DNA from: Paludibacteraceae bacterium
GTDB taxonomy: Bacteria; Bacteroidota; Bacteroidia; Bacteroidales; Paludibacteraceae
Length of the DNA stretch: 64,000 nucleotides
Assembly: GCA_017467185.1 (NCBI GenBank)
Contig: JAFTSS010000085.1
Span: forward strand, 1 to 64,000
Direction of reading: 5' to 3'
In this document: piece after piece, positions 9,257-47,812 of the stretch
How the letters are laid out: each line of letters begins with the position of its first letter
Numbering within the stretch: position 1 is the first letter of the stretch
Translations under genes and position numbers: made by a program
The notes under the pieces: generated by a model
Told to the model about the DNA's origin: nothing
Database searches by the model: none
What the model saw: only the letters and a program-made list of their open reading frames with translations

Positions 9257-9365
9257 GAGTGAGGAATTAGGAATTAGGAATTAGGAATGAGGAATTCGGA
9301 GTTAGGAATTGAATTTCTCAATTCTCAACTTTCAACTTTCAATTTTCAAATTTCAATTTTTTGTA
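9257..9365 (+). repeat. heptamer microsatellites (AGGAATT)n then (TCAACTT/TCAATTT)n immediately 5' of the antiporter start codon
   Basis: Direct inspection. Confidence 0.8.
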
Positions 9366-9726
9366 CGTTTCTGCAAAGTTAGTCATTTTTTTTTAATTGA
9401 GCAATAGTGCAAAACTTATGCCTGTGGCGGATTTTTATTAGTTTTGTTAAAAAATCTTGTGTTGTTTTATTGGATTTGTTAATAAATTACTGTGTTTTTG
9501 TTAAATTACGACTATTATTTGTAAAATATTTAGCATTTAGTGTTAAATTAACGTTAAATTTTAATTTTACGCTTGCTATTTTGTTAAAAAGTTGTACCTT
9601 TGCAGTGTCAAAACGAATTAACTTAGTTTTGGAGGTTTTTTTATAGATTATAGATTATAGATAATGTGGACAGAAGTTTTGCGTGAGCAAGGCTTCTGTT
9701 TTTTTTGTAAGGATATGGCAAAAAAA

Positions 9727-9754
9727 GTAGAGACGCAAAATTTTGCGTCTCCAC
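9727..9754. repeat. palindromic element gtagagacgcaaaattttgcgtctccac (family GAGACGCAA-N-TTGCGTCTC)
   Basis: Near-perfect inverted repeat in an intergenic region. Confidence 0.7.
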
Positions 9755-9854
9755 TAAAATTTTTTTCATAAAATTAGGGGGAGTGGTCGAAGACCGATGG
9801 GGTTAATACTTGTTATCTGTAATCTGTACTCTATTATCTGTTATTTGTATTATA

Positions 9855-11717
9855 TCAAAGTACTATCTTTTCCACCTCATCACCAACAGCAATCACATAC
9901 ACCCCACGTGGCAATGATAATTGAGCATCACGACCAGTATAAATTAATCGACCATTTACATCAAAGAGTTGATAATCTGCCGACAAACCATCCACATATA
10001 GCACACCGCCCACTGAATATATTGCAATATTTGCATTTTCGGTATTTTCGATTGAAGTATCTTCATCACTTTCTACTACATTGATAAATTCGCCCCAATA
10101 TTCATCATTTGCGTATGCCTCACGAGCTCCTTCTGGCACAATCACAGGGATATTTCTGTTCACATCGAAGAATGTTTTTGCAAAAATAGTTGGAGGCTCG
10201 ATAGCATTCACATTGATTTGTTTCATACGACTACAGAGTGCAAAACAGTTGTCGCCAATGCGTTGTGTAGTCGATGGCAAAGCGAGCGAATCGAGATAAG
10301 TACAACCATAGAATGCCGCATCACCCACTTCGGTTACACCCTCTGGAATTACAAGATTTTCCAACGCATGGCAGTTGTAGAATGCCCAGTTACCGATGCG
10401 TTGCAATGCCACATCGCCATCGGCTGCAGCACGTTTCATGCGCGATGCGAACGATTTAGCCTCAGCTTGACCACCAAATGTGATAGATTTGATAGAACGA
10501 CAATTCTCGAATGCTGCATCATTGATTTCTACCACCGAAGCAGGAATATTTATCTCTTTCAACTGATAGCACTCTGCCATAGCCTTAAATCCAATAGTTT
10601 CGAGATTGCCAGGCAACATCAAGTTCTCCAATTTATAGCAGTCGTAGAATGCCAAGTCGTTGATTGCAGTGTTTGTAGTACCAGCGAGGTCGATAGTATG
10701 AAGCGATTTTTTCGAGCGATTAATATAGTTAAAACCATTCTCATCCAACTCTCCATCAGTGATATGCACCTCAGTCAATTTATTAGAAAATTGGGTTTGA
10801 AATTCTTCCTTAATCGAATTAACCAATTTAGCAGGGCCTTGGAAATAACGAAGGTTTTTAGTTGCGTTAAGAGGATGCCATGTTTCGTCACTAGATTCAT
10901 AAAAATCAAGTTCTACATCATCCCCAAATTCACAAATCAAAGTATCAAGAGAAGAAACCATAGGAATCCATTCATCGCTTTCTTCATCATAAATATTATA
11001 ACAATAAAAAATGCTTTCACCAATATATTTAACTCCACTACCAATTTTTGCATACCTTAATTGCGCACAATCCCTAAAGACTCGTCCTCCAATACAAACT
11101 ACACTATTAGGAATTTCTATTGATGTAAGTCCAGAACATCCCCTAAATGCACTTTCTCCAATAAAAGTTACGCGATTGGGAATTGTGATTGATGTGAGAG
11201 CAGAATAATTATAAAATACATAATCCTTAATAGAGTCAACATCTTCTGGTACAACTACATCTGTTACTTTTTTATTATTTAAATATAAATTTTCTGCATA
11301 GTGTAGGGGGTTAGCAGTACTACAATTCTTAAATTCAATATCAAACCATGCGCCTACATCAAATATATATACATCAACAAGTGAATAACAAGCCAAAAAA
11401 GCATCTCCACCAATAGTTGTTACACTATTTGGGATTGTGATTGAAGTGAGAGATGAACATCTAGAAAATGCAAAATCCCCAATCTCAGTCACACTATATT
11501 CTACACCATTATAGGTTACTTTTTCAGGAATAACAATTTCTGATTGAATATATCCCGCACCATTATCATCCCATAAATACCCCCCATCATTCGTAACAGT
11601 AGCCGTCTTATTCTCATGGTCGAAATCGTAATAGATACCATCGATTTCGGCTTCATAGGCGAATGCCATTGTTGCACTACACAACAATGCAATCAATAAA
11701 AAGTAAATTTTCTTCAT
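9855..11717 (-). CDS. BspA-type leucine-rich-repeat surface protein with T9SS C-terminal sorting domain
   Basis: 620 aa with a signal peptide and repeated IPNSVTxIGxxAFxxCxxL modules (LRR_5/BspA type). The C-terminal approximately 80 aa resemble a Por secretion tail. Confidence 0.7.
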   Translation of the reverse strand: MKKIYFLLIALLCSATMAFAYEAEIDGIYYDFDHENKTATVTNDGGYLWDDNGAGYIQSEIVIPEKVTYNGVEYSVTEIGDFAFSRCSSLTSITIPNSVTTIGGDAFLACYSLVDVYIFDVGAWFDIEFKNCSTANPLHYAENLYLNNKKVTDVVVPEDVDSIKDYVFYNYSALTSITIPNRVTFIGESAFRGCSGLTSIEIPNSVVCIGGRVFRDCAQLRYAKIGSGVKYIGESIFYCYNIYDEESDEWIPMVSSLDTLICEFGDDVELDFYESSDETWHPLNATKNLRYFQGPAKLVNSIKEEFQTQFSNKLTEVHITDGELDENGFNYINRSKKSLHTIDLAGTTNTAINDLAFYDCYKLENLMLPGNLETIGFKAMAECYQLKEINIPASVVEINDAAFENCRSIKSITFGGQAEAKSFASRMKRAAADGDVALQRIGNWAFYNCHALENLVIPEGVTEVGDAAFYGCTYLDSLALPSTTQRIGDNCFALCSRMKQINVNAIEPPTIFAKTFFDVNRNIPVIVPEGAREAYANDEYWGEFINVVESDEDTSIENTENANIAIYSVGGVLYVDGLSADYQLFDVNGRLIYTGRDAQLSLPRGVYVIAVGDEVEKIVL

Positions 11718-12090
11718 AATAATTAAAGTTTTAGTGATTAATATAATTCGTTTTATAAAATAGAGACTATAGGTGAAATAGTAACTATAGGAGCAATAGA
11801 GACTATAGAAACTATAGTAGAGGGGAGATTAAACAGGCGTTAATTTAATATTAGGTGTATCAGGTGGTTATTAAAAATGTACAAATAAAGTGGATGACGG
11901 TTTTTTTCGGCAGAGGTTGTTTGCACCTTCGATAAGGGTAGGTTGTGGATTTAGTTGTACATTTTGACACAAAAAAAACGTGGAATTCGACTGTTGTCGT
12001 TCCACGAACTGAGGCTGTCGCATTGCCTTGAAGTCGGAACAGACAACGCGAAGCCCACGCTGAAATGTATGTATATTTATACCCCTACAG

Positions 12091-12112
12091 GAGACGCAAT
12101 ATATTGCGTCTC
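12091..12112. repeat. palindromic element gagacgcaatatattgcgtctc
   Basis: Perfect 10-bp arms. Confidence 0.7.
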
Positions 12113-12312
12113 TACAGGTATGTACAACATTCCCGTAGGACATCTAACGTTGCAATGCTCTTGACTTCATTAGAAACTGCGACATTTCAGTTCGTCAGAA
12201 CAAAGCGTCGATAAACGCCTATTTATTATTTATATCTTGCGATTCCCACCCGATTGCCCAATCAGCGTGAGTTTCACACCGCAAAGGTAGAAATTATTTT
12301 TGAAATATCCAA

Positions 12313-13251
12313 TTATTCCGAAATAATTTTTACGTTTTCGGCTATTATTGTTTTGTATTTTTCTTTTATTTCGTTTGGTAAGAACGATAGGTCTATCATT
12401 TCATACCATGCAGGAATAGTTTTATTGAATTTTTTGAATATATTGGCAATAGTTTTTTCTTCTAAACCTGAATTTTGCATTGCTATTTCGAAGTCTATTT
12501 TTTTTATCTTCCGTTTTTTGCTATTCAGATTCAATGCCAATTCTTCAGTGTCTTCTGGTAAAACTAATTGTGTTGATAAAAGGTTGTAAGCAGGAGATAA
12601 TATATGTCCGTATCCGATTGGTTTATATAGTGAAAAGTTCTTTAAATGCATATCGGAATTTCCAACTAACCACGAGAATAGAACTATTTCCCAAAATTTG
12701 ATGATGTCTAATTTTGGTACAGATGAATATTTGGCAATTAGTTTCGCTATTTGTTCGTATGACCCTTTATATTTATGCTCTGTTAATCTTTCTGATAATT
12801 GACACATATCTTCCATTGCAAGTTTGTATCCATTGTTTAATCTATCAATGCGACGAGTCAAATAGCAAAGGCGACCATCGGCAATTGGTATCAATGTATG
12901 AGGTACAACGTCAATACCAGATATTTCAGCCAAATGCATAGTTAAATCTTCGATTTCTGGTAGATTGGCATAAATGTCGGTTTGAGGTTTTAATATGTAT
13001 CGTCCCCATAAACCAACAATAGTGAATCTTTTTTCTTTGCTCTCTGTAGTGATATCTAACGAAAGTTTAGCTTGAACCCCAGTTAGTGTGGTTTGACTGC
13101 GAATGACTTCTTCTGCCAATTTGTTTAAATCAGCATGATGAAAATTGGCAATTGGGCACGTTGTATCGTTGAATATTTTTTTTGAACATGTGCGATGAAA
13201 CCCAATTTCGCCATTTTTTAATTCTTTGTAACAATAAAAACATTTAGCCAT
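12313..13251 (-). CDS. HipA-like serine/threonine kinase toxin (HipT-like: kinase core without the HipA N-terminal subdomain, with N-terminal CxxC...HxxC zinc ribbon)
   Basis: 312 aa. It carries the catalytic-loop motif VGNSDMHLKNFSL typical of the HipA family and an N-terminus CFYCYKEL...HRTC. Confidence 0.75.
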   Translation of the reverse strand: MAKCFYCYKELKNGEIGFHRTCSKKIFNDTTCPIANFHHADLNKLAEEVIRSQTTLTGVQAKLSLDITTESKEKRFTIVGLWGRYILKPQTDIYANLPEIEDLTMHLAEISGIDVVPHTLIPIADGRLCYLTRRIDRLNNGYKLAMEDMCQLSERLTEHKYKGSYEQIAKLIAKYSSVPKLDIIKFWEIVLFSWLVGNSDMHLKNFSLYKPIGYGHILSPAYNLLSTQLVLPEDTEELALNLNSKKRKIKKIDFEIAMQNSGLEEKTIANIFKKFNKTIPAWYEMIDLSFLPNEIKEKYKTIIAENVKIISE

Positions 13252-13255
13252 ATCT

Positions 13256-13582
13256 CTATTCTTCTTCTTTTATTTCAATGACACTAATAGCTCCTATGCA
13301 ATCACGGCAACAAGCTAATAATAGCGACATGCGGTCGCGATTGTTTATTTTCCAATTGCGCTCTGCTATATCAAGTAGCCAGCCTTCAGGTATTAAACCA
13401 TCAAAAAATGGGAATAACACTTTGTCGTGGTATGTTTCTTCTTGCAGTGGTAGTGTCAAACTAATTGGTTCGGCATCTGGTTGTACTAGATATTCTTTCT
13501 TGTACTGAAAAGAATAACCATTGTCTGTTTCTCGTAAAATGCCAACTTGTCTGTCTCGTAGATATATATATGCTTGTTTCAT
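13256..13582 (-). CDS. HipA N-terminal-domain protein (HipS-like third component)
   Basis: 108 aa. A 5-nt gap separates it from the kinase gene, and its start overlaps the hipB-like stop. Its length and position match HipS of the HipBST systems. Confidence 0.65.
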   Translation of the reverse strand: MKQAYIYLRDRQVGILRETDNGYSFQYKKEYLVQPDAEPISLTLPLQEETYHDKVLFPFFDGLIPEGWLLDIAERNWKINNRDRMSLLLACCRDCIGAISVIEIKEEE

Positions 13583-13785: not shown

Positions 13786-13806
13786 AGTTGTTTTTTTGTC
13801 GATTAT

Positions 13807-18233: not shown

Positions 18234-18690
18234 TAGTTTAGAGTTAAAAGTTTAGAGTTAAGAGTTAAGAGTTAAGAGTTTAGAGTTAAGAGTTAAGAGT
18301 TTAGTGTTTAGAGTTAAGAGTTAAGAGTTTAGTGTTTAGGGTTAAGAGTTTAGTGTTTAGAGTTAAGAGTTTAGTGTTTAGAGTTTAGTGTTTAGAGTTA
18401 AGAGTTTAGCGTTTAGAGTTAAGAGTTAAGAATTAAGAATTAAAAATTAAAACATTTAATTCCACATTCCACATTCCTCACTCCTCATTCCTCACTCCTC
18501 ATTCCTCATTCCTCATTCCCCATTCCTCATTCCCCATTCCTCATTCCCCATTCCTCATTCTCCATTCCTCATTCCCCATTCCTCATTCCACATTCCACAT
18601 TCCACATTCCTCATTCCTCATTCCCCATTCCTCATTCCACATTACTCATTCCACATTACTCATTCCACATTCCACATTCCTCATTCCTCA
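18234..18690 (+). repeat. two abutting heptamer microsatellite arrays, about 31 x (GAGTTAA/GAGTTTA/GTGTTTA) then about 33 x (CATTCCT/CATTCCA/CATTCCC)
   Basis: Direct inspection. The arrays fill the whole gap between the lptC-like stop and the gldE-like start. Confidence 0.9.
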
Positions 18691-19265
18691 ATAGGTATTG
18701 TGCCTTTTGGTTGGCGTATGCTGTATCGGCTGAAGGTTTGATTAGATTCGAACCCGATGCCGAGTATTTTTCTGTCTTTTTGGATGATTGTTATTGCAGA
18801 GTCGCTATATACGCGCTCTTCTTTTTGGTCCCAATATAGTTCATTGGTATAAAATTCCTCTTGGTTGAGATTTGTTGCCTCAATGTTGTCATTGAGTTTC
18901 CATAGTTCTAATTTGCTGTAATAAATTGCTTTATCGCATTCTATTTCAGCATCAATGTTGTAGTTTTCGTCGAAGCGTTCAAAACGTAATCCGTTTGGAA
19001 AATCCCAATATGGGGTATCGGCTTTTTCATAGACGTACCAATCTGGAGCTATAATTCTGTAACGGATTATACCAGAGTCGGATACGATGGTTGTTATTGA
19101 ATCGGCATACACCTGAGGTGTATGTTTTATATCAGTTATGGAAGATGTCATGTCGTGCTTTGTTTGGCACGAAAAAAATAATGCACAATGCAAAATGCAC
19201 AATGCACAAAAAAAATTAGATACGAGATGCGAGACACGAGATGCGAGACACGAGATGTGAGGCAT
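18681..19265 (-). CDS. hypothetical protein, possibly LptC-family periplasmic LPS-export protein. The start is uncertain (alternative ATG at 19151).
   Basis: 194 aa. The N-terminal 38 aa are encoded by an (ATGCACA)n heptamer tract. Conserved Bacteroides synteny (coaX - OMP - TPR - lptC - gldE - ppiD) supports the call. Confidence 0.35.
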   Translation of the reverse strand: MPHISCLASRVSHLVSNFFCALCILHCALFFSCQTKHDMTSSITDIKHTPQVYADSITTIVSDSGIIRYRIIAPDWYVYEKADTPYWDFPNGLRFERFDENYNIDAEIECDKAIYYSKLELWKLNDNIEATNLNQEEFYTNELYWDQKEERVYSDSAITIIQKDRKILGIGFESNQTFSRYSIRQPKGTIPIEE

Positions 19266-19288
19266 AAGTTGTTGAATAGTAAAAAATA

Positions 19289-19335
19289 GACACGAGACAC
19301 GAGAGCAAAAATCTTGTTTCTCGTGTCTTGTGTCT
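19289..19335 (-). terminator. hairpin built from inverted (GACACGA) heptamers, followed on the minus strand by a T-run; terminator of the TPR gene
   Basis: agacacgagacacgagagc-loop-ctcgtgtcttgtgtct, with atttttta downstream on the minus strand. Confidence 0.5.
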
Positions 19336-19349: not shown

Positions 19350-20660
19350 TTATTTGCTACGAACAGTAGTTGTTTCATTTACCCAACCGCCTACGTAGTG
19401 CGATTTGCCTTCTTCTACGTCAGGGTGCATGAATACCTCTTCTTTAGAAGGGAAATATGCGCTATATGTACGGATGAGTTTGTTAGCTTGTTCAATCATA
19501 TCTTCTGTTGGTTCTACACTTTTTGCTTTTGCAAATTGGTCAACTGATGCCCAATATACTGCTTTTTGGAGTGTTGGGTCGTCAGATACTTTTGCTTGTG
19601 CATAAACAAGACCAAGCATGATATGAGGTTGTCCTTGTGCAGGATTTTTAGCTAACGATTCTTTGCAATATTTACGTACATTTTGGTATTGCTCTTTTTT
19701 GTAATATACTTGAGCAATGCGGAACAAGTTGTCGGCAATATCTAAATCTTCAGTTGAAAGATTTACAGCTTCTTGATAATATTCAATAGCTTTGTCTAAA
19801 TCGCCTTTTACGTATGACATATTGCCAAGACCAGTAGCAGCTTCGGCAGATGGTGAAATTTTGTGAGCATATTCAGCCGCTTTGTAGTATGCTTCGTGTT
19901 CGATACATTTCAAGCGTTTGAACAATTTCATTACGCCTTCAAGATATTTGAGGTCAGCATTGTTACGTTCAACATTTGGCAAGAAGATTTCGTTCATTTT
20001 TGCGCAATCTGCAACGCCCGAAGCAGCAAAAAGTACATCAACAGCAGCTTTTACACTTGTATAGTCTTCGGCATTTTTGAGGTCAGCATTTTGACCATTT
20101 GCTGTTAAGATAGCATCAGCAAAAGTGTAGTCGCCGATAAATTGTTCAGCCAAAGTGTTGTCTGCTTTATAAAGATTAGCAGATGTAAATACAAAGAGTT
20201 GTAATTCGTTGGCTGCAGCGGCATTGCCCAAACCGTGAATAGCTTCTTTAATCCAAGGATAAATAGTTGCATTATCGTCTGGGAAGTATTTGTTATGCTT
20301 TGATGCTTTGTCTGCTAAAATTGCAGGACGAGGAGTTTTTTTGTCGTTTCCAAAATATTGGATGCGGTCATCATACAATTTCATCAATTGATTGAATGCA
20401 GCATTAAATTCATCTTGAGTTGTAGCTTGTTTGATTTTCCATTCGAGGATTCTAACACCGAGAGCATAGATGTTTTTTGATGCAGATGGACACTCAGTGT
20501 AAACTTTCATCCATGGCTCGTAAGCGTCGGCATAGTTTTTAACTTTTGCATACTCAGTGAAAAGTGAAAGGTTCACTTTGCATTCTTCTGACATTTGTGC
20601 CGCAATATTGCTTACAAACAACATCGCCACAAATAAAGCAGTTAATTTTAATGATTTCAT
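19350..20660 (-). CDS. tetratricopeptide-repeat lipoprotein/periplasmic protein
   Basis: 436 aa with a signal peptide and multiple TPR-like helical repeats (e.g. AIEYYQEAVNL). Confidence 0.55.
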   Translation of the reverse strand: MKSLKLTALFVAMLFVSNIAAQMSEECKVNLSLFTEYAKVKNYADAYEPWMKVYTECPSASKNIYALGVRILEWKIKQATTQDEFNAAFNQLMKLYDDRIQYFGNDKKTPRPAILADKASKHNKYFPDDNATIYPWIKEAIHGLGNAAAANELQLFVFTSANLYKADNTLAEQFIGDYTFADAILTANGQNADLKNAEDYTSVKAAVDVLFAASGVADCAKMNEIFLPNVERNNADLKYLEGVMKLFKRLKCIEHEAYYKAAEYAHKISPSAEAATGLGNMSYVKGDLDKAIEYYQEAVNLSTEDLDIADNLFRIAQVYYKKEQYQNVRKYCKESLAKNPAQGQPHIMLGLVYAQAKVSDDPTLQKAVYWASVDQFAKAKSVEPTEDMIEQANKLIRTYSAYFPSKEEVFMHPDVEEGKSHYVGGWVNETTTVRSK

Positions 20661-20732
20661 AGCTATTAATGATTAGTTATTAATGATTATTTATTAGTTA
20701 AAATGAACAACTCTCCAATTCGCAATTCTTCA

Positions 20733-21974: not shown

Positions 21975-22036
21975 TATAATTTACAATCAATAATCTGTTA
22001 TCCGTAATCTGTTATCTGTAATCTGTACTCTGTTAT

Positions 22037-22807
22037 CTATTTTGATATATTTTTCGCAATAAAGTTTAATCCCTTTGGCACAAGCATCGGTTCAAAAAAT
22101 AGCGAGGAGTGAGAAGTGAGGAGCGAGGAGTTATCTATAATGTTTAAATTAAAAAGTCCTCCAGTCAATATCACTTTTAAGTTATTATACTCCTTTAAAT
22201 ATTTTTCAATGTAGCCATTTATTTCGTTTATCACACCCCAATATGCCCCATTCAAAATTGCCTCACGGGTTGTTAAGCCCAATTGAGCATTGTGCATTTT
22301 TTGCTTTGGTTCAAAACCATTTTCTATTGAGCATTGTGGAAGTGCTGCCGTAAAATGATGCATAGCATCCAATCTCATTTGTATGCCAGGGGCAATATTA
22401 CCACCTACGAAATGACCATCAATCAACAAATCGTACGTATTGCATGTGCCACAATCAATTACCAAATAATTTCCCTTGCCAGCAATTGCGTATGCCCCAG
22501 CCAAAGCCGCAATCCTATCCTTGCCCAAAGTTTCAGGTGTTAAGTAATCAATTTCGAATGGTAGAGGTGATTTGTATGACAATAGATGATATTTTGCGTC
22601 TATTTCGTCTAATAATTGTGCAATTCTTCTCTCTTTTTCAGGATTAACACTCGACACGATAACATATTTGAGTAGGTCAAACCGAGAAAACAAATTAACT
22701 ATGTCTTCTTTATTAAATTGTTCAAATACAATATGTTCAACCAACCGTTCTCCATCGAAAACAGCTGCCTTTGTTTTAGTATTGCCTATGTCGATAGTCA
22801 GTACCAT
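22037..22807 (-). CDS. coaX: type III pantothenate kinase
   Basis: 256 aa with N-terminus MVLTIDIGNTKTKAAVFDG, characteristic of CoaX. Confidence 0.85.
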   Translation of the reverse strand: MVLTIDIGNTKTKAAVFDGERLVEHIVFEQFNKEDIVNLFSRFDLLKYVIVSSVNPEKERRIAQLLDEIDAKYHLLSYKSPLPFEIDYLTPETLGKDRIAALAGAYAIAGKGNYLVIDCGTCNTYDLLIDGHFVGGNIAPGIQMRLDAMHHFTAALPQCSIENGFEPKQKMHNAQLGLTTREAILNGAYWGVINEINGYIEKYLKEYNNLKVILTGGLFNLNIIDNSSLLTSHSSLFFEPMLVPKGLNFIAKNISK

Positions 22808-24828: not shown

Positions 24829-24868
24829 GGGGTGTTAGTTACTAGTTATTAGTTATTAGTTATTAGTT

Positions 24869-25037
24869 AGTAATTTTCAATTTTTGCGTTAAGCGAGAGC
24901 AATGAAAATTATTTCAATTGCCGAGTGGAGCAAAAATCACGACCGAAGGGAGTAATTCTCAATTTTTGCGATAAGCGAGAGCAATGAAAATTATTTCAAT
25001 TGCCGAGCGGAGCAAAAATCACGACCGAAGGGAGTAA
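24869..25037 (+). repeat. tandem duplication of an approximately 84-bp unit (aattttcaatttttgcgttaagcgagagcaatgaaaattatttcaattgccgag...gaagggagta)
   Basis: Two copies about 93% identical. They are flanked by (TAGTTAT)4 on the left and (AACACTC)n on the right. Confidence 0.8.
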
Positions 25038-25140
25038 CTCTCCAACTCTAAACACTCAACACTCAACATTCAACACTCAACACTCAACACTCAACACTCA
25101 ACTCTAAACACTAAACTCTCAACACTAAACTTTATATATT

Positions 25141-26629: not shown

Positions 26630-27094
26630 ATGATACAGAAAGATATTATTACTAATTTGGTTATCAGCAAATTAGCTGATACAAGATATTTTTTGGTTGA
26701 TGTTACAGTTTCGGCTGATAATGTGATAAAGGTAGAAATTGATGCCGAGGAGGGTGTTGATATTGACTTTTGTGTTGAACTAAATCGTTTTATTGAAGCT
26801 AACTTTGATCGTGAGGTGGAGGATTATGAGCTTGAAGTAGGTTCGGCAGGTCTTACATCTCCGTTTAAGGTGAAACGTCAATACGAAAAAAATCTAAACA
26901 AAGAGGTTGAAGTGTTAGAGGCGAATGGTATTAAGCATGAGGGCGTGTTGGTAGAGGTAGATGATGAAAAATTCGCTATTGACGAGACTAAAATGATACG
27001 TAAAGAAGGTGATAAGCGCAAAAAGCCTTATACAGAGCGTATAGAATTTAAGTATTCAGAAATAAAATATACAAAATATAAATTTAAAATTTAA
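26630..27094 (+). CDS. rimP: ribosome maturation factor RimP
   Basis: 154 aa in the conserved position before nusA. Confidence 0.8.
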   Translation: MIQKDIITNLVISKLADTRYFLVDVTVSADNVIKVEIDAEEGVDIDFCVELNRFIEANFDREVEDYELEVGSAGLTSPFKVKRQYEKNLNKEVEVLEANGIKHEGVLVEVDDEKFAIDETKMIRKEGDKRKKPYTERIEFKYSEIKYTKYKFKI

Positions 27095-27180
27095 TTTGAA
27101 ATTTTAAATTTGAAATTTTAAATCTTCGTTATGATTTTCAACTTTCAACTTTCAATTTTCAATTTTCAACTTTAAACGTA

Positions 27181-28431: not shown

Positions 28432-28509
28432 AATAAATAGTTATGAATTAGTATTTTTTATCTCTAATTCGTTAATAACTAATAATTAGTAACTAATAAC
28501 TAAAAATAT

Positions 28510-31563: not shown

Positions 31564-31579
31564 TTAGAAATAAAATAAT

Positions 31580-31625
31580 AGACACGAGATGTAAGACATA
31601 TTTGTCTTGTGTCTCGTGTCTTTTA
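31580..31625 (+). terminator. hairpin (agacacgagatgtaagaca / tgtcttgtgtctcgtgtct) plus TTTT after infB
   Basis: Inverted heptamer-family arms followed by a T-run. Confidence 0.55.
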
Positions 31626-31630
31626 GTAAT

Positions 31631-31700
31631 TAGTTTTTTTATAATTTCTATAGCCACTATAGCTACTATAGCCACTATAGTTTCTATAGCCACTATAACT
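31631..31700 (+). repeat. nonamer array (CTATAGCCA/CTATAGCTA)x~6 upstream of cvpA
   Basis: Direct inspection. The same family occurs at 47706-47790, 42141-42170 and 11745-11830. Confidence 0.8.
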
Positions 31701-31725
31701 CTCAACTTTTAATTCTTAACTATCA

Positions 31726-32271
31726 ATGAACTATCTTGATATAATTTTAATTATACCTCTTGCTTATGGGCTTGTTCAGGGGCTTCGTAAGGGCTTGGTA
31801 AAAGAAATTGCAGGTTTGCTTGCTGTTGTTTTAGGTATCTATTTAGCGCGTTATTGGTCATTGCCAGCATCGCAAGCTTTGACAGAAATGACAGGTTGGG
31901 CAACAAATATTTGTACTCCTTTGGCATACGCTTTAGTTTTTATAGTTGTTTCTTTATCAATTTCTGCATTGTCATATATGCTCAGTAAGATAATAGGTGC
32001 AATTATGCTTGGTTGGCTCAATCGTCTGTTAGGCGCAGCTTTTGGCGTTGTAAAAATGACTCTATTGTTGAGTGTTATACTCAATTTTGTAGCAATTATG
32101 AATCAGTTTATGCCAATTAAAGATAAACCTGTGGTACAGCAATCATTGCTATATTCACCCATCGAAAATGTGATGAGTGCAGTTTTGCCTTTATTGAATT
32201 TTGAAGATTTTACAACTGCAGTTCGTGAAGGTGTTGTTGAGCCTGCAACTAAAGTAATCGAAGAACTTTGA
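31726..32271 (+). CDS. cvpA: CvpA-family membrane protein
   Basis: 181 aa with 4 TM helices, in the conserved position after infB. Confidence 0.75.
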   Translation: MNYLDIILIIPLAYGLVQGLRKGLVKEIAGLLAVVLGIYLARYWSLPASQALTEMTGWATNICTPLAYALVFIVVSLSISALSYMLSKIIGAIMLGWLNRLLGAAFGVVKMTLLLSVILNFVAIMNQFMPIKDKPVVQQSLLYSPIENVMSAVLPLLNFEDFTTAVREGVVEPATKVIEEL

Positions 32272-32310: not shown

Positions 32311-33241
32311 CTAATCAGCGTTTTTCATATCTATTGAATATTTTAGTCCAATGCGAAATTCATGATATTGCCAATCTTTAATGCCGTATTGATAGGCGAC
32401 GTATGGTTCTAATCCGTATGGGCAAGGAATGCCAATTTTTGTTTTTAATGTCATAGGTTTATCTCCATTATTTTGCCAGCCTATATAACCTCCCCATTCT
32501 GTGATTAGTCGTAAATATAGAGCTTCAAATTCAGCCCTTAATCCATACATGTAGGCATCGTTTTGTTCTGCTCGTCCTGTTTGCCAGCAATAGAATCCGA
32601 TTGACCCAGAAAGACTAAATGATTTTGCCCATTTATTTTCCCAATTTATTTTTTCGGCGAGTGCTAAATCTAAGAAGTATCCTGGAGCATCAATGAATCT
32701 TTTATTCTCAAAATTTCCTCCCGATGCTGTTTTTATGCCTATTCTAACAACTGCCGAAGGTATATATGGTGATGATTTTTTGAACCATTGGTGGTGCAAG
32801 ACTTGAATATTAGTGCTTACATAAATATCTCCAGCAACATTATGCCAATTATTTCGTGTCTCGTATCTCGTATCTCGTGTCTCGTATCTCGTGTCTCATG
32901 TCTCGTGTCTTTTTTTTTGAATAAAAATCCATTACCGAATACCAAGCCTCCAAATTTACCCAACGTGTAAAAAGAGGTATATTCAATCGTAGATTTGGTG
33001 TAAAAGTATTGCTTTGGTCAAATCCTCTAAAGTAACTTCCTGATATTTCTACTGAAAATTTATCTGAAGTTTCTCCCGACGACATCTCTATCACTGGCAA
33101 CGCATTGGGCCCCCACGGCATCTCTTGTCCCCACCCAAACAACGAAAAAAACAAAGCGCAACCTACGAGGCATAACCTCATACATTGCGCTTTAATATTT
33201 AGTTTGTAAGTCATAAGATTATGAGTTAATTTAACTTTCAA
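32311..33241 (-). pseudogene. outer-membrane protein gene split into two frames at a (TGTCTCG)~7.5 heptamer array plus T9 tract (32857-32918); candidate phase-variable or disrupted gene
   Basis: The upstream ORF (33241-32849, with signal peptide) ends inside the array. The downstream ORF (32799-32311) is open through the array in the other frame. Confidence 0.5.
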
Positions 33242-33269
33242 CTCTCAACTTTCAACTTTCAACTCGTTT

Positions 33270-35057: not shown

Positions 35058-35060
35058 ATT

Positions 35061-35205
35061 ATAGATTTTTAGTAGCGAGTAGCGAGTAGCAAGACCTTTT
35101 GTACTCGGCTTCGCCTCGTTAGTCTTTATAGATTTTTAGTAGCGAGTAGCGAGTAGCAAGACCTTTTGCACTCGGCTTCGCCTTATTCGTATTATAGTAG
35201 CGATT
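35061..35205 (+). repeat. tandem duplication of an approximately 72-bp unit containing (TAGCGAG)3, immediately upstream of argS
   Basis: Units 35061-35133 and 35137-35205 are about 95% identical. Confidence 0.8.
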
Positions 35206-35313
35206 TTTTTTAGATTCACATTTTTGTTATTTACACTTACTTATAAAACGAATATTACAAGTTTATAGGCAAATAATTATGCATTATGCATTGTGAATTG
35301 AGCATTGATGTAT

Positions 35314-35386
35314 GAGCCACATTGGGGACTCGAACCCCAGACCTACTCATTACGAATGAGTTGCTCTACCAACTGAGCTAATGTGG
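35314..35386 (-). tRNA. tRNA-Thr (anticodon CGT)
   Basis: 73 nt. The cloverleaf folds manually (acceptor GCCACAT/ATGTGGC, D-arm GCTC-AGTTGGTA-GAGC, anticodon loop TTCGTAA, T-arm TGGGG-TTCGAGT-CCCCA). No CCA is encoded. Confidence 0.85.
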
Positions 35387-35396
35387 CAAGGTTATT

Positions 35397-40626: not shown

Positions 40627-40687
40627 TTACTCATTCCTTAGGTTTTGGAGAGCAATGTAGCTTACTTTAGTTGCTGGTGAAAAATAA

Positions 40688-42142
40688 TTCCTCATTCATC
40701 ATTCCTCATTCCTCATTTTTAATATTTTTACCTTCATATTTTCAATCATTCTTCTCGTATTAGGCTATGTAGTATATGGTCGCATAGTCGCTCGAGTTTT
40801 TGGTGCAGACTCCAATCGTGTAACACCAGCCATAGCCAATCCCGATGGTGTTGACTATGTATCAATGCCATGGTGGAAAATTTTCCTTATTCAATTTCTT
40901 AATATTGCAGGGCTTGGACCTATTTTTGGCGCAATTATGGGAATCATGTTTGGTCCATCTGCATTTCTTTGGATTGTATTTGGCTCTATATTTGGTGGTG
41001 CTGTACATGATTATCTTTCGGGTATGTTGTCTATGCGACGCAATGGTGCATCATTGCCTGAATTAGTGGGTGAACAACTCGGTATGGGGGTTAAGCAATT
41101 TATGCGCGTTTTTTCGCTTTTGTTGATGGTGCTTGTTGGTGCTGTTTTTGTAAGCGGTCCTGCAGGTTTGCTTGCTGGTATGGTGAAATCTATTAGCGTT
41201 ACTTGGTGGATTGTAATTATTTTCGGCTATTATATGCTTGCAACTTTGCTCCCTATCGATAAACTCATTGGTAAAATCTATCCATTGTTCGGATTTGCTC
41301 TACTTTTTATGGCTGTAGGTATTTTGGTTTCTTTGTTTATTAACAACGCACCAATACCTGAAATTACATCTGGACTTGCAAGCCAACATCCACAAGGTTA
41401 TTCAATTTTTCCAATGATGTTTGTCTCTATTGCATGTGGGGCAGTCTCTGGTTTTCATGCTACTCAGTCGCCTATGATGGCACGCTGTATGACGAATGAA
41501 AAATATGGTCGTCCATGTTTTTATGGAGCTATGATTGCCGAAGGCATTGTTGCTCTTATTTGGGCAGCAGCAGCCTCTTCGTTCTTCGGTTCAGTTGGTG
41601 GATTGCAAGAGTATGTTGCCTCTTTACCTGCTACTGCAAACAAGGCTGCTGAGGTTGTTAATCTTATATCTAACACTTGGTTAGGTAAATTTGGTGGTAT
41701 TTTGGCCGTGTTGGGTGTTGTGGCTGCTCCTATTACTTCGGGCGATACAGCTCTCCGTTCAGCTCGCCTTATTGCTGCCGATTTTTTACATATTGATCAA
41801 AAACCAATTCTTAAGCGTCTTATGGTGGCAGTACCTCTTTTCGTGGGTACATTCATATTATTACAAATCAATTTTGATGTAATTTGGCGTTATTTTGCTT
41901 GGAGCAATCAAACACTTTCTGTCTTTACTTTTTGGGCATTGACAGTATATCTTTATAAGGAAAAACGTTGTTATTGGATAACTTTAATTCCTGCTCTATT
42001 TATGACTGCTGTATGTTCTGCCTATATTATGGTTGCCCCAGAAGGTTTCGGTCTCCCACTATATATAGGCTATATCGTCGCCGCAGTTGTTTGTATAGTT
42101 TTTACTCTTTTATTTATTCGTTTCACAAAAAATAAACTATAG
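40688..42142 (+). CDS. cstA: carbon starvation protein CstA; no canonical start, and the 5' end overlaps the (TTCCTCA)n array
   Basis: CstA homology (LGYVVYGRIVARVFGADSNRVTPAIANPDGVDYV...) starts upstream of the first ATG (40865) and runs back to the stop at 40685 inside the heptamer array. Confidence 0.7.
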   Translation, partial: FLIHHSSFLIFNIFTFIFSIILLVLGYVVYGRIVARVFGADSNRVTPAIANPDGVDYVSMPWWKIFLIQFLNIAGLGPIFGAIMGIMFGPSAFLWIVFGSIFGGAVHDYLSGMLSMRRNGASLPELVGEQLGMGVKQFMRVFSLLLMVLVGAVFVSGPAGLLAGMVKSISVTWWIVIIFGYYMLATLLPIDKLIGKIYPLFGFALLFMAVGILVSLFINNAPIPEITSGLASQHPQGYSIFPMMFVSIACGAVSGFHATQSPMMARCMTNEKYGRPCFYGAMIAEGIVALIWAAAASSFFGSVGGLQEYVASLPATANKAAEVVNLISNTWLGKFGGILAVLGVVAAPITSGDTALRSARLIAADFLHIDQKPILKRLMVAVPLFVGTFILLQINFDVIWRYFAWSNQTLSVFTFWALTVYLYKEKRCYWITLIPALFMTAVCSAYIMVAPEGFGLPLYIGYIVAAVVCIVFTLLFIRFTKNKL

Positions 42143-42214
42143 CTACTATAGTTCCTATAGGTTCTATAATTCCTCATTCCTCATTTCTCATTTCTCATTT
42201 CTCATTCCTCATTC
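42141..42214 (+). repeat. nonamer (CTATAGNNC) then heptamer (CATTCCT/CATTTCT)x7 array immediately 5' of the helicase start
   Basis: Direct inspection. Confidence 0.8.
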
Positions 42215-44728: not shown

Positions 44729-44899
44729 TCTTTTGTCCTATCATATTCTCCCCCTGTTTTAGGGGGAACTGACGCAGGAGAGAGAGCAGGACCAAGCCCG
44801 CTTGAGTTATGCCGAGCGACAAGGAAGTCGCCGAAGGCAATACCCGAAGGGGGAGGGGGTTCGACTATTGACTATTGACTATTGACCATTGACTATAGA

Positions 44900-45502
44900 C
44901 TATAAACTATCGTCTGTCGCTCGTTTTTTCATCTCTTCATTGTAGCAATGGCGGCAAATAGGCTCATATTTGTCAGTTTCACCCAATAATACTTGAGATT
45001 CGCCGGCAACTAAACGATGTGAAACGTATGCTGGAGCGCCACAACGTACGCATACAGCATGTACCTTTTGTATGTCATCAGCAATAGCCATCAATGCAGG
45101 CATTGGTCCGAATGGAGTGCAACGGAAGTCCATATCCAATCCCGCAATAATCACGCGATAACCGCTTTCTGACAATTTGCGGCATACGTCAACAATTCCA
45201 TTATCAAAAAATTGGGCCTCATCAATGCCTATAACATCAACATCACCAGCCATCAATAAAATATTTTGCGACGATTCTACTGGTGTCGATTGTATTGCAT
45301 TATGGTCATGGCTAACAACTTCAGTCTCTGAATAGCGGGTATCTATACAAGGCTTAAATATTTCAACTCTTTGTTTTGCAAATTTTGCACGTTTCAATCT
45401 GCGGAGCAACTCTTCTGTTTTTCCTGAAAACATAGACCCACAAATTACTTCTATACTTCCACGATGAGGACAACTGCAGTTAGCTGATTCAAAAAAATAC
45501 AT
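44900..45502 (-). CDS. tdk: thymidine kinase
   Basis: 200 aa with the P-loop [11 protein letters not shown] and zinc-ribbon cysteines CVRCG...CRHC. Confidence 0.85.
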
Positions 45503-45651
45503 ATATTATTGTTTTTTATTCGTAAAAAATTCGTACCTTTGTATTTGTAAAAATGAAGTAAGCTCAATATTTAAATTATGTAGAGGAGACCCATTTTTGC
45601 CATGCAAAGTTACAAAATAAATTTTAATAAAAATCATATTTTTCTTACAAA

Positions 45652-46617
45652 ATGAACAAAGAAGTTTTAGTTGCACTTATAGCAAAGGATGTCAATGAAT
45701 TACAAACTCTCACTGAAGGTCTTGATCAAATGGAGACTATTCCAGCACCTTATCTTCGTCTTGCTTTGGATAAGTCAAAAGCATTGACTACGAATCTTGA
45801 TAATCTTATCAATTATTTGAATAATAAAGAATTAGAGGACGCTGCAGAAGCTCAACGTCAGGCTGAATTAGAGGCTGCAAGAGCCGAAGAAGAAGCACGT
45901 AAAGCCGAAGAAGAAGCACGTAGAGTCGAAGAAGAAGCACGTAGAGCAGAGGAAGAAGCACGCCAAGCCGAATTAGCACGTATTGCCGAAGAGCAAGAAG
46001 CTTTGCTTCGAGCTCAAGAACTCGAACGTGAGCGTCAAGCTGAGGAACGCCGTAAAGCTGAAGCTGAAATTGCTCGACAAGTTGCCGCACTTGAAGCTGC
46101 CCGTCAATTAGAACTTGAAGAAAAAAGTCGTGTCTGCAACGAGCAAAACGAAGCAGAAAATAAAATAACGATGGAAACTTCAGAGGAAAAATCTATAGCC
46201 TCTACAGAAAATATAGATTCTATAGCTCCTACAGCTCCTGTAGAAACTACTGCTCCCACAACCTCAATCGTTGGTGCCATAGCCGAAAATCAACCTCAAA
46301 CATTAGCAGAATCCATCGAAACATCAGAATCCTTAGCCGATAAACTTGCAAAAACTGCTGATGATACTCTTGCTGAAGTTATTAACAATAAAAAAATAAT
46401 AGATTTAAAATCATCTATAACTCTTGGCGACCGTTTCCGTTTCCAACGCGAATTATTTGGTGGTAATGGCGAAAAAATGAATAAAGCAATATCTGACTTT
46501 AATTCATTTGAAACTATGACCGAAGCTCAATCTTATATAGCTAAAAACTTCGATTGGCCATTAGACAACGATGCTGTATCTGATTTCATTCAACTCCTTC
46601 AACGCCGCTATTTGTAA
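45652..46617 (+). CDS. hypothetical coiled-coil protein with in-frame 24-bp (8-aa EEARRAEE) tandem repeats
   Basis: 321 aa. Four or five repeats of gaagaagaagcacgtaga-like units fall at 45890-45985. Confidence 0.4.
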   Translation: MNKEVLVALIAKDVNELQTLTEGLDQMETIPAPYLRLALDKSKALTTNLDNLINYLNNKELEDAAEAQRQAELEAARAEEEARKAEEEARRVEEEARRAEEEARQAELARIAEEQEALLRAQELERERQAEERRKAEAEIARQVAALEAARQLELEEKSRVCNEQNEAENKITMETSEEKSIASTENIDSIAPTAPVETTAPTTSIVGAIAENQPQTLAESIETSESLADKLAKTADDTLAEVINNKKIIDLKSSITLGDRFRFQRELFGGNGEKMNKAISDFNSFETMTEAQSYIAKNFDWPLDNDAVSDFIQLLQRRYL

Positions 46618-46689
46618 TAAATATTTCAGAACTAAAGTAGGGACACGGCATGCCGTGTCCGTTGTTAAATGGAATAAAAACACTTAATT

Positions 46690-46942
46690 ACGTCAGTTCG
46701 ATATAAAAATCCGTATGGTATCCGTGTAATCTGTAGAACTATTTTTGCGTAGTAAAAGAGCGAATTCAGCCAAAATCCTTCTCAACGTAGGGACGCACGG
46801 CTCGTGCGTCCGCTTAATATGTCTGTAGAACGGAGGGGTATGTGATAAAAAAATCGTGTTATCCGTGCATTTTTCGCCAAGGCTCAAGACCGTTGGTTCC
46901 GTGTGAGATAAAAGTTATATCGAACTCTCGTTAATTATGAAT
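46690..46942 (-). mobile_element. MITE-like element family B, copy 3 (inverted orientation, flanked by duplicated TTAATTA)
   Basis: About 85% identical to copy 2 over the whole length, with the same 18-bp TIRs. Confidence 0.7.
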
Positions 46943-46950
46943 TTTGAATT

Positions 46951-47715
46951 ATGAATTGTGCATTATATTTAGTTCCTACCCCTGTAGGCAATCTCGAAGA
47001 CATAACATATCGTGCCTTACGAATTCTAAAGGAGGTGAATCTTGTGCTTGCCGAAGATACTCGCACTACGGGTATCCTTTTCAAACATTTTGATATTCAC
47101 ACTCCTATGGCATCGCATCACAAATTCAACGAACATAAAACCATAGCACATTTTGCCGATCGCATTCTCGCTGGCGAATCCATAGCATTAGTTAGCGATG
47201 CTGGCACTCCTGCAATTTCTGACCCTGGTTTTATGCTTGTGCGTGAGTGCGTTGCTCGTGGCATTAGAGTAGAGTGCCTCCCTGGAGCTACAGCTTTTGT
47301 ACCCGCATTAGTCGATTCAGGCTTGCCAACCGATCGTTTCTGTTTCGAAGGATTCTTGCCACAGAAAAAAGGCAGACAAACCAAATTACAATTGCTTATT
47401 TCTGAAGATCGTACAATGATTTTCTACGAATCCCCATACCGACTTGTAAAAACACTCCAACAATTTGCTGAAGTCTTTGGCTCAGAACGTCAAGCATCAG
47501 TTTCACGCGAAATATCTAAAATGTTCGAAGATACACAACGTGGTACGCTACAACAGCTTATCGAACATTTTACAGCCATACCACCCAAAGGCGAAATCGT
47601 AATTGTAGTAGCTGGAGCTAGTAGAGACGCAATACATTGCGTCTCAACAGGCGAAGATAAAGATGAAGAACAAGACCTCGCAAAAATCCGAAAATCCAAA
47701 AAACATAGATTATAG
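46951..47715 (+). CDS. rsmI: 16S rRNA (cytidine1402-2'-O)-methyltransferase
   Basis: 254 aa with N-terminus LYLVPTPVGNLEDITYRALRIL. It carries a C-terminal in-frame palindromic-element insertion. Confidence 0.85.
   Translation: MNCALYLVPTPVGNLEDITYRALRILKEVNLVLAEDTRTTGILFKHFDIHTPMASHHKFNEHKTIAHFADRILAGESIALVSDAGTPAISDPGFMLVRECVARGIRVECLPGATAFVPALVDSGLPTDRFCFEGFLPQKKGRQTKLQLLISEDRTMIFYESPYRLVKTLQQFAEVFGSERQASVSREISKMFEDTQRGTLQQLIEHFTAIPPKGEIVIVVAGASRDAIHCVSTGEDKDEEQDLAKIRKSKKHRL
47621..47645. repeat. palindromic element gtagagacgcaatacattgcgtctc embedded in-frame near the 3' end of rsmI (encodes SRDAIHCVS)
   Basis: Perfect 10-bp arms. Confidence 0.7.
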
Positions 47716-47812
47716 CGGCTATAGCAACTATAGCAACTATAGCGGCTATAGCAACTATAGTAACTATAGCAACTATAGTTGCTAATTCCTAACTCCTCAT
47801 TCCTCATTCTCA
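47706..47812 (+). repeat. nonamer array (CTATAGCAA/CTATAGCGG)x~9 followed by (CATTCCT) heptamers, abutting the HAD-hydrolase start codon
   Basis: Direct inspection. Confidence 0.85.

Follow-up and report, generated by a model that had tools for sequence, protein, structure and literature searches.

We analysed a 64-kb window, the whole 64,000-nucleotide stretch of contig JAFTSS010000085.1 from a Paludibacteraceae bacterium, and found that it carries numerous tandem arrays of seven-nucleotide units. The arrays were almost entirely restricted to intergenic DNA, were enriched in this lineage and differed between strains in steps of 7 bp, and whole spacers were also replaced between strains. Arrays that directly preceded start codons had a fixed orientation in which the mRNA strand was nearly free of G. 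The arrays are probably long simple sequence repeats (LSSRs) that were generated by replication slippage and filtered by selection on translation-initiation regions. A first-pass annotation of this DNA had suggested that they may be a lineage-specific system for tuning expression through repeat number, and this interpretation was partly supported.

Heptanucleotide arrays are concentrated in intergenic DNA

Arrays were detected with Tandem Repeats Finder and with an independent period scan that included a shuffled-sequence control; the statistics cover the 64-kb window. The period scan found 23 period-7 arrays at one threshold (1,232 bp), 23-28 overall, and 4 period-9 arrays. There were none at periods 3-5, 10-12 and 15, one at period 6, two at period 8 and one at period 13, while the signal at period 14 came from the period-7 arrays picked up again. 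Shuffled sequences contained 0 arrays (0.1 at period 13), so the repeats lie far beyond chance, a point in favour of the first-pass annotation. Between 9 and 48 kb, Tandem Repeats Finder listed about 50 rows whose period was 7 or a multiple of it, with higher-order periods of 14, 21 and 28 bp that are typical of slippage.

The arrays consisted of about 3 to 33 units and occupied 14% of the intergenic bases of the window versus 0.3% of its coding bases (odds ratio 53). Between 9 and 48.6 kb their share of intergenic DNA was 23%; the window scan found few arrays in 1-9 kb and none in 49-64 kb. In the biggest block (18235-18690), about 30 AGTTAAG units were succeeded by about 33 of ATTCCTC. The 64 kb contained at least 12-20 distinct unit families, and the same families recurred across loci and strands, in agreement with the earlier claim. 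The twelve array loci named in that annotation (antiporter, CNNM/GldE-like, flotillin, nusA, infB, cvpA, OMP-like, argS, cstA, helicase, HAD and BspA-like) were all present where it had placed them; among them, the infB array is weak and imperfect, the cvpA array has a 9-mer unit and the BspA-like array a 9/18-mer unit. Gene names used here are backed by Pfam for the Na/H exchanger (antiporter), BspA-type leucine-rich repeat protein, CNNM/CorC, LptC, flotillin/Band 7, RimP, NusA, IF-2, CvpA, ArgRS, CstA, PIF1-like helicase and HAD hydrolase.

Arrays adjoining start codons are nearly free of G on the mRNA strand

Eight arrays lay no more than 10 nt from a start codon (antiporter, CNNM, flotillin, nusA, infB, cstA, helicase and HAD genes) and were taken as the start-proximal set. 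On the mRNA strand these arrays contained 2 G versus 150 C in 517 nt, whichever DNA strand held the gene, and their units matched a loose AAYTYYY consensus. The array before the CNNM/GldE-like gene (18235-18452) reads CTTAACT/CTAAACT in the mRNA, with 1 G and 57 C and a higher-order period of 28 bp, and the sense strand of 9262-9295 before the antiporter gene has 0 G and 11 C. Among four further start-proximal alleles taken from other strains, three were G-free and one had a single G. This rule was seen in the start-proximal subset only. Stop-adjacent arrays had at least as many G as C in 7 of 10 cases, the extreme being 33 units of GAGGAAT after lptC (18459-18690; 104 G and 0 C on the mRNA strand). 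Ordinary leaders in the window were also G-poor: G made up 9% of the 30 nt preceding starts versus 15.5% downstream of stops.

The first-pass annotation had placed the arrays immediately 5' of start codons. Many arrays do adjoin starts; others abut or overlap stop codons (18459-18690, 24835-24869, 27080-27123, 33233-33264 and 47711), lie in convergent spacers (9641-9662, 9811-9849 and 44863-44910) or occur inside open reading frames (ORFs), so that this part of the claim did not hold in general. Arrays were rare in divergent, promoter-bearing spacers. Co-directional junctions were often filled from stop to start, as at cstA/helicase, methylase/HAD, CNNM/LptC and rimP/nusA. Three arrays were intragenic (ispG, the outer-membrane protein (OMP)-like gene and coaX), and a fourth overlapped the methylase start codon. 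The arrays and associated elements at minus-strand genes and in convergent spacers are as follows.

6054-6077, minus strand: 3.4 copies of ATTTTGC inside ispG/gcpE, which is present as two ORFs (5351-6076 and 6037-6909)
9262-9360, minus strand: antiporter leader with two arrays; ATG at 9253
9262-9310, minus strand: 7 copies of AATTCCT (mRNA strand), ending 8 nt before the antiporter ATG
9312-9360, minus strand: 7 copies of a TTGAAAR-type unit on the promoter side of the antiporter leader
9374-9381, minus strand: Bacteroidetes -7 box TAACTTTG, upstream of both antiporter arrays
9641-9662, no strand assigned: 3.1 copies of TTATAGA 3' of the BspA-like gene, in a spacer with no nearby start codon
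9811-9849, no strand assigned: 5.6 copies of TGTAATC 3' of the BspA-like gene, in that same spacer, no nearby start codon
11758-11817, minus strand: 9/18-mer array of CTATAG type, 40 nt before the BspA-like start (11717)
18235-18452, minus strand: about 30 units of AGTTAAG/AGTTTAG, ending 8 nt before the CNNM/GldE-like ATG at 18226
18459-18690, minus strand: about 33 units of ATTCCTC/ATTCCAC/ATTCCCC, overlapping the LptC stop at 18681
19180-19335, minus strand: LptC leader and 3' region of the TPR gene, with 4.3 copies of AATGCAC and 6 of AGACACG/AGATGCG
19288-19335, minus strand: terminator-like hairpin after the TPR gene, with arms of GACACGA units followed by a U-run
20660-20700, minus strand: 5.9 copies of TAGTTAT/TAATGAT, abutting the TPR-gene start codon at 20660
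21991-22038, minus strand: 6.9 copies of TAATCTG, filling the spacer from the hyp413 start (21974) to the coaX stop (22037)
22104-22131, minus strand: 4 copies of GAGGAGT in the 3' part of coaX, in frame and kept in strain locus L083
32854-32910, minus strand: 8.1 copies of TCGTGTC (GACACGA in the mRNA) inside the OMP-like gene (32311-33214)
33233-33264, minus strand: 4.6 copies of AACTTTC (GAAAGTT in the mRNA; 10 G, 0 C), 5 nt past the argS stop (33270), with the OMP-like start (33214) 18 nt downstream
35058-35308, minus strand: argS upstream region with two copies of a 67-bp unit, each holding 2.9 copies of AGTAGCG
35071-35090 and 35138-35157, minus strand: the two AGTAGCG arrays (2.9 copies each) upstream of argS
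35276-35308, minus strand: 4 copies of an ATTATGC-type unit beside tRNA-Thr
44863-44910, no strand assigned: 6.9 copies of GACTATT in a convergent spacer, overlapping the thymidine-kinase stop

Those at plus-strand genes are listed next.

24835-25130, plus strand: flotillin upstream spacer, with 5 copies of TTAGTTA after the stop of the upstream gene and then 2.1 copies of an 82-bp unit
24869-25042, plus strand: the 82-bp unit (2.1 copies), two tandem copies in the window
25043-25130, plus strand: 12.6 copies of G-free CAACACT/CTAAACA, ending 10 nt before the flotillin ATG at 25141
27080-27177, plus strand: rimP-nusA junction, with 6.6 copies of AAATTTG overlapping the rimP stop
27136-27177, plus strand: 6 copies of G-free TTTCAAC, ending 3 nt before the nusA ATG at 27181
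28473-28503, plus strand: 4.4 imperfect copies of TAATAAC, 6 nt before the infB ATG at 28510
31576-31725, plus strand: infB-cvpA junction, with a hairpin, a 9-mer array and a degenerate G-free tract
31576-31625, plus strand: terminator-like hairpin with GACACGA arms, after infB
31648-31697, plus strand: 5.6 copies of CTATAGCCA in the infB-cvpA junction
up to the cvpA ATG at 31726, plus strand: 4 copies of degenerate G-free AACTNTN
40687-40717, plus strand: 4.4 copies of G-free ATTCCTC, 6 nt upstream of the true cstA start (40724)
42136-42214, plus strand: cstA-helicase junction, all repeats, with 3.7 copies of CTATAGNNN and then 6.6 of G-free ATTCCTC/ATTTCTC, which stop 6 nt short of the helicase ATG (42221)
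46933-46966, plus strand: 4.9 copies of AATTATG, overlapping the methylase start codon (46951) and invariant in strains
47711-47809, plus strand: methylase-HAD junction, with 7.6 copies of TATAGCAAC, predicted to form a hairpin and overlapping the methylase stop
within 47711-47809, plus strand: 4 copies of a G-free ATTCCTC-type unit, ending 3 nt before the HAD ATG at 47813

The cstA start codon (40724-40726) is ATT in the window and ATG in all ten other strain contigs. Since the real start is at 40724, the cstA array ends 6 nt upstream of it, and the earlier placement of this array 5' of the start is confirmed. Phase variation of cstA through an in-array frameshift was considered and dropped, as the ATG of the other strains lies downstream of the array.

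Promoter context and predicted RNA structure

Promoters were located with the Bacteroidetes TAnnTTTG box. A sigma-70 promoter scan was set aside together with a simple terminator scan; it returned fewer promoters than in shuffles, and the terminator scan missed the heptamer-armed hairpins because of its loop limit. In the box scan, a -7 box upstream of arrays was present at the antiporter gene only, and no array in the window interrupted the -33/-7 spacing of a promoter. Because the antiporter box lies upstream of both arrays, these belong to the 5' untranslated region (5'-UTR). Most other arrays occupy junctions within apparent operons, such as coaX to CNNM (minus strand) and rimP-nusA-infB (plus strand).

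G-free arrays were predicted to be unstructured and palindromic 9-mer arrays to be strongly structured. The predicted fold of the methylase-HAD 9-mer array was -35.8 kcal/mol (z -6.3), and the hairpins after infB (31576-31625) and after the TPR gene (19288-19335) had predicted values of -27.4 kcal/mol (z -8.5) and -26.9 kcal/mol (z -7.6). At the rimP-nusA junction the two arrays are complementary to each other (TTTGAAA pairs with TTTCAAN), and the allele common to most strains is predicted to fold at -20.4 kcal/mol (z -3.9). The flotillin 82-bp unit had a weak predicted fold (z -1.6) and no match in Rfam; at the gathering threshold, Rfam returned tRNA-Thr (35315-35387) as the sole match in the window. 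The helicase and HAD genes share a composite module of 9-mer array, G-free 7-mer array and ATG, and the layout at cvpA is similar, its 7-mer part being a degenerate G-free tract.

Intragenic arrays coincide with split genes

In the window ispG has three ATTTTGC units, and in same-strain scaffolds (L099 and L100; L-numbers label the compared loci) it has four units and a single intact GcpE ORF of 521 amino acids (aa). Thus ispG is split because the window has three units where these scaffolds have four, and this 7-bp gap was the sole indel in 10 kb relative to a same-strain scaffold. The three-unit allele is either a true one-unit slippage variant or an assembly error in a normally essential gene. 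The OMP-like gene encodes a signal peptide and is present as two ORFs in the window, with an A9 run and the eight-unit array out of frame. It is intact in L083 (285 aa; two units, A8), and L084 encodes 293 aa with a different array, four copies of AATGCAA, at the same site. To judge from these alleles, the OMP-like gene behaves like a phase-variable surface-protein gene.

Arrays vary between strains in steps of one unit

The strain set comprised about 20 contigs from independent assemblies (ENA, NCBI, Logan) that were 95-99.9% identical to the window. These were retrieved by searching for identical copies of three proteins, RimP, thymidine kinase and the antiporter; the antiporter search returned the same strain only. 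Copy number shifted between strains in 7-bp steps. The L082-type cvpA spacer measured 121, 128, 135 or 177 bp with 5 to 14 copies of ATTCCTC, and the array upstream of cstA had 4, 6 or about 13 units. Spacer lengths were 97, 132, 139 or 148 bp at HAD (3 to 10 units), 205, 263, 279, 312, 319 or 364 bp upstream of flotillin, where the 82-bp unit occurred once or twice, and 43, 106, 171 or 215 bp in the convergent helicase/thymidine-kinase spacer. The hyp413 spacer was 62 versus 83 bp (6 units in the window versus 9 in L083) and the rimP-nusA spacer 86 versus 79 bp. The start-proximal arrays of nusA and infB were constant in copy number over nine strains. The first-pass annotation had called for this comparison, noting that invariance would count against it; since copy number is polymorphic between strains, that objection fails.

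Whole spacers were replaced between strains whose flanking genes were 98-99% identical. The CNNM-LptC spacer is 454 bp in the window and 90 bp in L083, where it has ATTTCAA units and the ATTCCTC array of about 33 units is absent. The infB-cvpA spacer has three unrelated alleles among strains, one of them with the 5 to 14 ATTCCTC copies. The alleles of the window and of L084 are homologous, and what distinguishes them is a 7-mer array that has expanded or decayed in place. The argS 67-bp unit is present once in L083, and the whole spacer is different in L084. Array-free spacers (MscS/hyp187, flotillin/rimP, thymidine kinase/hyp321, hyp321/methylase and HAD/SusC) were constant, with length differences of at most 1 bp and few or no substitutions among close strains. 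Three of them (MscS/hyp187, flotillin/rimP and HAD/SusC) have the TAnnTTTG -7 box with a -33 TTTG.

A near-identical scaffold differed from the window at 11 positions in about 50 kb. Two of the differences were exact 7-bp indels in arrays, five were substitutions within arrays and one lay nine nt past an array end, although arrays account for no more than about 2.4% of the sequence. Among nine substitutions, four had T in the window versus G in the scaffold and one had A versus C, and all five were in or beside arrays.

Strains also differed in gene content around the arrays. In L094 (7684-7808, compared with 47716-47812 of the window), the HAD gene and SusC/D locus are replaced by transglutaminase-like and capsule-export genes; the spacer downstream of the methylase gene, with its 9-mer array and ATTCCTN array, is kept before the new gene. 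The MscS-to-cvpA block (about 9.4 kb; from about 22.9 to about 32.3 kb of the window) has a different genomic context in several strains, which indicates a rearrangement segregating within the species. It is preceded by rpoB-rpoC in five strains (L082, L084, L085, L087 and L088). The downstream neighbour also differs in L082, L085, L087 and L088 (DUF3078-Era-Der where the locus reaches), and L084 keeps window-like sequence there.

Arrays are enriched in one lineage, and some units recur elsewhere

The NusA of the window was 97% identical to that of a Candidatus Aphodosoma (Bacteroidales) metagenome-assembled genome, and the next relatives were at 74%. At syntenic nusA loci, the Aphodosoma species of the window had 3.6-7.8 period-7 arrays per 10 kb, and the 80 loci of other Bacteroidota had none in most cases and never more than about 2 per 10 kb. 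In the nearest species (L001, a 3.9-kb contig) the rimP-nusA spacer was 20 bp long and without arrays; its leader holds AACTTTAA, which matches the TTTCAAC unit and looks like the seed from which such an array could grow. The description of the arrays as lineage-specific therefore stands as a strong enrichment relative to these Bacteroidota, and it does not extend to the type of repeat, as heptamer repeats with the same placement are known in other phyla.

Units such as TTTCAAC, TTTTCAA, AATTCCT and AGATACG also form arrays in other taxa. Loci sharing units were found in Tidjanibacter (L051 and L052) and Alistipes, at 48-55% GC, and in L025, L079 and L080. IMG/VR contigs found with (ATTCCTC)4 or (TTTCAAC)4 (L103-L113; 34-67% GC), among them GC-rich viral or prophage contigs, carry the same units, and one of them, L106, encodes a phage portal protein. 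Contigs of other taxa often end within such arrays. An exact unit was shared by 7/22 and 6/15 arrays versus about 5-8% expected from a composition-matched null, an expectation that is rough and uncertain because low-complexity A/T-rich units inflate it. Should the sharing of units across taxa hold up, it would point to sequence-specific function or to horizontal spread.

Relationship to known repeat systems

According to the summary of Mrázek, Guo and Shah (2007) in PMC4679880, LSSRs are sporadic, mainly non-coding repeats with 5-11-nt units that are put down to polymerase slippage; in the same summary, heptanucleotides are the commonest in LSSR-rich genomes, and seven nucleotides may be the stretch contacted by the polymerase. 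The window arrays agree with this class in exceeding random expectation for units of 5-11 nt, in being heptamer-dominated and in their sporadic, lineage-specific occurrence. Units not divisible by three were concentrated in non-coding DNA, the few intragenic arrays coincided with frameshifted ORFs, and length was unstable by whole units both between strains and between near-identical assemblies. The genomes named as LSSR-rich in that summary (Burkholderia, cyanobacteria, actinobacteria and Xanthomonas) include no gut Bacteroidales, whereas the present arrays occur in a gut Bacteroidales bacterium, take up about 14-23% of intergenic DNA and comprise many unit families.

MacGregor (2015; PMC4679880) described TAACTGA heptamers directly upstream of starts in marine Beggiatoaceae/Flexibacter, some cyanobacteria and five Bacteroidetes, and proposed a translational role for them. 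As in that description, the arrays of the window are intergenic heptamers, mostly in forward orientation a few nt upstream of starts, strain-specific and absent in close relatives. Rehm (2015; PMC4692102) described GGGNATC/GGGGA(C/T)T heptamers of Xanthomonas and Nostoc that are strand-oriented and lie between aligned ORFs. That work reports genome-wide heptamer arrays of varying copy number with the same placement and orientation rule: window arrays also lie between aligned ORFs, with the G-poor strand as the sense strand before starts and the G-rich strand after stops. The window units GAGGAAT/GGGGAAT are one base from the Xanthomonas unit CGGGAAT; in contrast to the Xanthomonas and Nostoc repeats, the window has many families and no preference for four units. 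Most window units lack G3 tracts and no G-quadruplex motif with G3 tracts was found in the window, so that G-quadruplex formation is not indicated.

Cyanobacterial short tandemly repeated repetitive (STRR) sequences have the heptamer units CCCCAGT, TTGGTCA and CAACAGT. Compared with the TAACTGA and STRR repeats, the window uses many other units and far longer arrays, up to 33 units. No tandem TAACTGA, CCCCAGT, TTGGTCA, CAACAGT, GGGAATC, GGGGACT, GGGGATT or ATCTTTC was present in the window, which rules out membership in the TAACTGA, STRR, GGGAATC and ATCTTTC families.

The comparison with contingency loci concerns Haemophilus influenzae, in which expression of hmw1A is inverse to the length of an (ATCTTTC)n repeat in its 5'-UTR (PMC12721329); at hmw1A/hmw2A the repeat forms a hairpin processed by RNase III at a single adhesin locus (PMC12721329, PMC2424069). 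The Haemophilus repeat is G-free on the mRNA strand, polymorphic in copy number and placed between promoter and start, and the antiporter leader has the same layout. The present arrays differ in occupying dozens of loci, mostly junctions within apparent operons, and the antiporter leader has no predicted hairpin; one had been considered by analogy with hmw and was not supported by the fold (z = 0.23). As at contingency loci, some of the repeats lie in a 5'-UTR (antiporter) or in an ORF (ispG and the OMP-like gene). Contingency loci are associated with surface or host-interaction genes and not with housekeeping genes, but the neighbours of the present arrays include nusA, infB, argS, coaX, lptC and the helicase gene besides the OMP-like and BspA-like genes. 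On these sequence features, we file the arrays under heptanucleotide LSSRs, together with one palindromic 9-mer family (CTATAGNNN), and under no sequence-defined family. The class is already known; the phylum-level lineage and the habitat had no previous emphasis for it in the cited literature.

Origin and possible role of the arrays

We consider it probable that the arrays are products of slippage on which selection at translation-initiation regions has acted. Replication slippage would give birth to arrays in transcribed spacers, where they would expand, contract and turn over, lasting almost solely between co-directional genes. Selection at the mRNA level would then set which unit and orientation survive at each position. 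Sequence adjacent to a start would have to avoid start codons and structure and hence be G-free, since a G-free array can contain no ATG, GTG or TTG and cannot fold. Initiation regions of Bacteroidota are A/U-rich and Shine-Dalgarno-independent, and G-free arrays fit such regions. Sequence adjacent to a stop may form hairpins, through the complementary G-containing orientation or through palindromic 9-mers. Copy number would influence the downstream gene gradually at most, by way of spacer length, RNA processing or Rho loading. Clear on/off switching would be expected only for arrays inside ORFs, namely those of ispG and the OMP-like gene, since every unit moves the reading frame by +1.

Several observations weigh against this explanation. 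The orientation test over all arrays was not significant (17 versus 11, p = 0.34). The recurrence of unit families at many loci is not accounted for by slippage alone, and neither is their recurrence in other Bacteroidales genera and IMG/VR contigs. Slippage also leaves the whole-spacer swaps between 98-99%-identical flanks unexplained. Some of the differences between assemblies could also be assembly errors in repeats.

Tuning of expression by copy number is plausible by analogy with H. influenzae, where expression is lower the longer a G-free heptamer repeat in the 5'-UTR is (PMC12721329). That the arrays are kept as a contingency system, because repeat number adaptively sets the expression of adjacent genes, seems rather unlikely. 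Copy number does differ between strains at cvpA, cstA, HAD, flotillin and CNNM, yet neutral microsatellites would vary just as much, and the start-proximal arrays of the housekeeping genes nusA and infB are constant. The fixed orientation of arrays abutting starts and the position of the antiporter arrays between -7 box and ATG fit tuning; arrays behind stop codons and in convergent spacers, and the intact -33/-7 spacing of promoters, do not. The split ORFs at the intragenic arrays of ispG and the OMP-like gene also fit tuning, although a one-unit loss in essential ispG resembles damage or assembly error more than regulation.

A further possibility is that the arrays are RNA or DNA sites for trans-acting factors (S1, cold-shock/RRM, CsrA-like or Rho), so that unit sequence would matter and not length alone. 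Rho prefers G-free, C-containing unstructured RNA. The loose AAYTYYY consensus near starts and the use of the same families at many loci are consistent with such binding, as is the recurrence of units in several Bacteroidales genera and in GC-rich contigs, whose composition gives no reason to expect AT-rich units. Binding of S1, Csp or Csr has been proposed for the start-proximal TAACTGA repeats by MacGregor (2015; PMC4679880). We nevertheless regard this account as unlikely: at least 12-20 unit families occur in 64 kb, loci swap to an unrelated family between strains, and the shared vocabulary consists in part of low-complexity A/T-rich units for which the null is uncertain.

A more far-reaching version, which we hold to be a long shot, is that Bacteroidales share a small G-free AAYTYYY vocabulary that would be read by factors (S1, RRM/cold-shock or Rho) as modular inter-cistron leaders with an upstream hairpin array. 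Repeat number would then be a heritable, fast-mutating dial on translation or within-operon termination at dozens of genes, and the recurrence of units in Tidjanibacter, Alistipes and IMG/VR contigs would reflect function or horizontal spread and not coincidence.

It is very improbable that arrays or spacers are cassettes copied between loci and strains by recombination or a mobile process. Such copying would account for the replacement of whole spacers between nearly identical flanks and for the composite (CTATAGNNN)n(ATTCCTC)n module shared by the helicase and HAD genes, which stands before a different gene in L094. Similar junctions (TAATTCCT...CATTCT) at several loci and units in common with IMG/VR contigs, one of which (L106) has a phage portal gene, also point in this direction. 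None of terminal inverted repeats, target-site duplications or an associated recombinase was seen, the homologous window and L084 alleles of infB-cvpA changed in place, and slippage is the simpler account of 7-bp steps. An assembly or sequencing artefact, suggested by scaffold gaps (N runs) and contig ends inside arrays and by several G-to-T differences within arrays between window and scaffold, is almost certainly not the explanation, as about 20 independent assemblies (ENA, NCBI, Logan) have the same arrays at the same loci in coherent allelic series.

Other elements in the window

A 253-bp element forms a tandem pair at 4471-4966 (98% identity), with a third copy at 6956-7169 (81%). It has inverted termini built of octamers (three copies of GACATAAT and three of ATTTTGTC) and promoter-like TAATTTTG boxes, and looks like a miniature inverted-repeat transposable element (MITE)-like or structured element. 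The region 9595-9760 contains a promoter-like TACCTTTG box, the array of three TTATAGA copies, two terminator-like hairpins with T-runs and no convincing ORF, a layout that may represent a small RNA gene. At 12313-13582 (minus strand), a gene for a HipA-like kinase is preceded by a small partner ORF, and the two are likely a toxin-antitoxin pair. The convergent helicase/thymidine-kinase spacer has a G/C-rich hairpin (CCCCCTGTTTTAGGGGG ... GGGGGAGGGGG) at 44729-44862, into which about 65 bp are inserted in some strains but not in others. The ORF at 45652-46617 contains an in-frame 21-bp repeat (4-5 copies of AGCCGAAGAAGAAGCACGTAA) at 45882-45992, which encodes an EEARR/KAE-rich coiled segment; its protein ranges from 314 to 328 aa among strains.

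Implications

Short-read assemblies are broken by the arrays, and annotation pipelines will misread the frameshifted ispG and OMP-like calls and the lost cstA start beside its array. The role of heptanucleotide repeats in bacteria has been a question since their description in cyanobacteria around 1990, and the window presents a very dense case in a gut Bacteroidales species. As many metagenomic strains of it exist, natural copy-number variation could be correlated with transcript levels, and the G-free rule is accessible to tests in genetically tractable Bacteroides.

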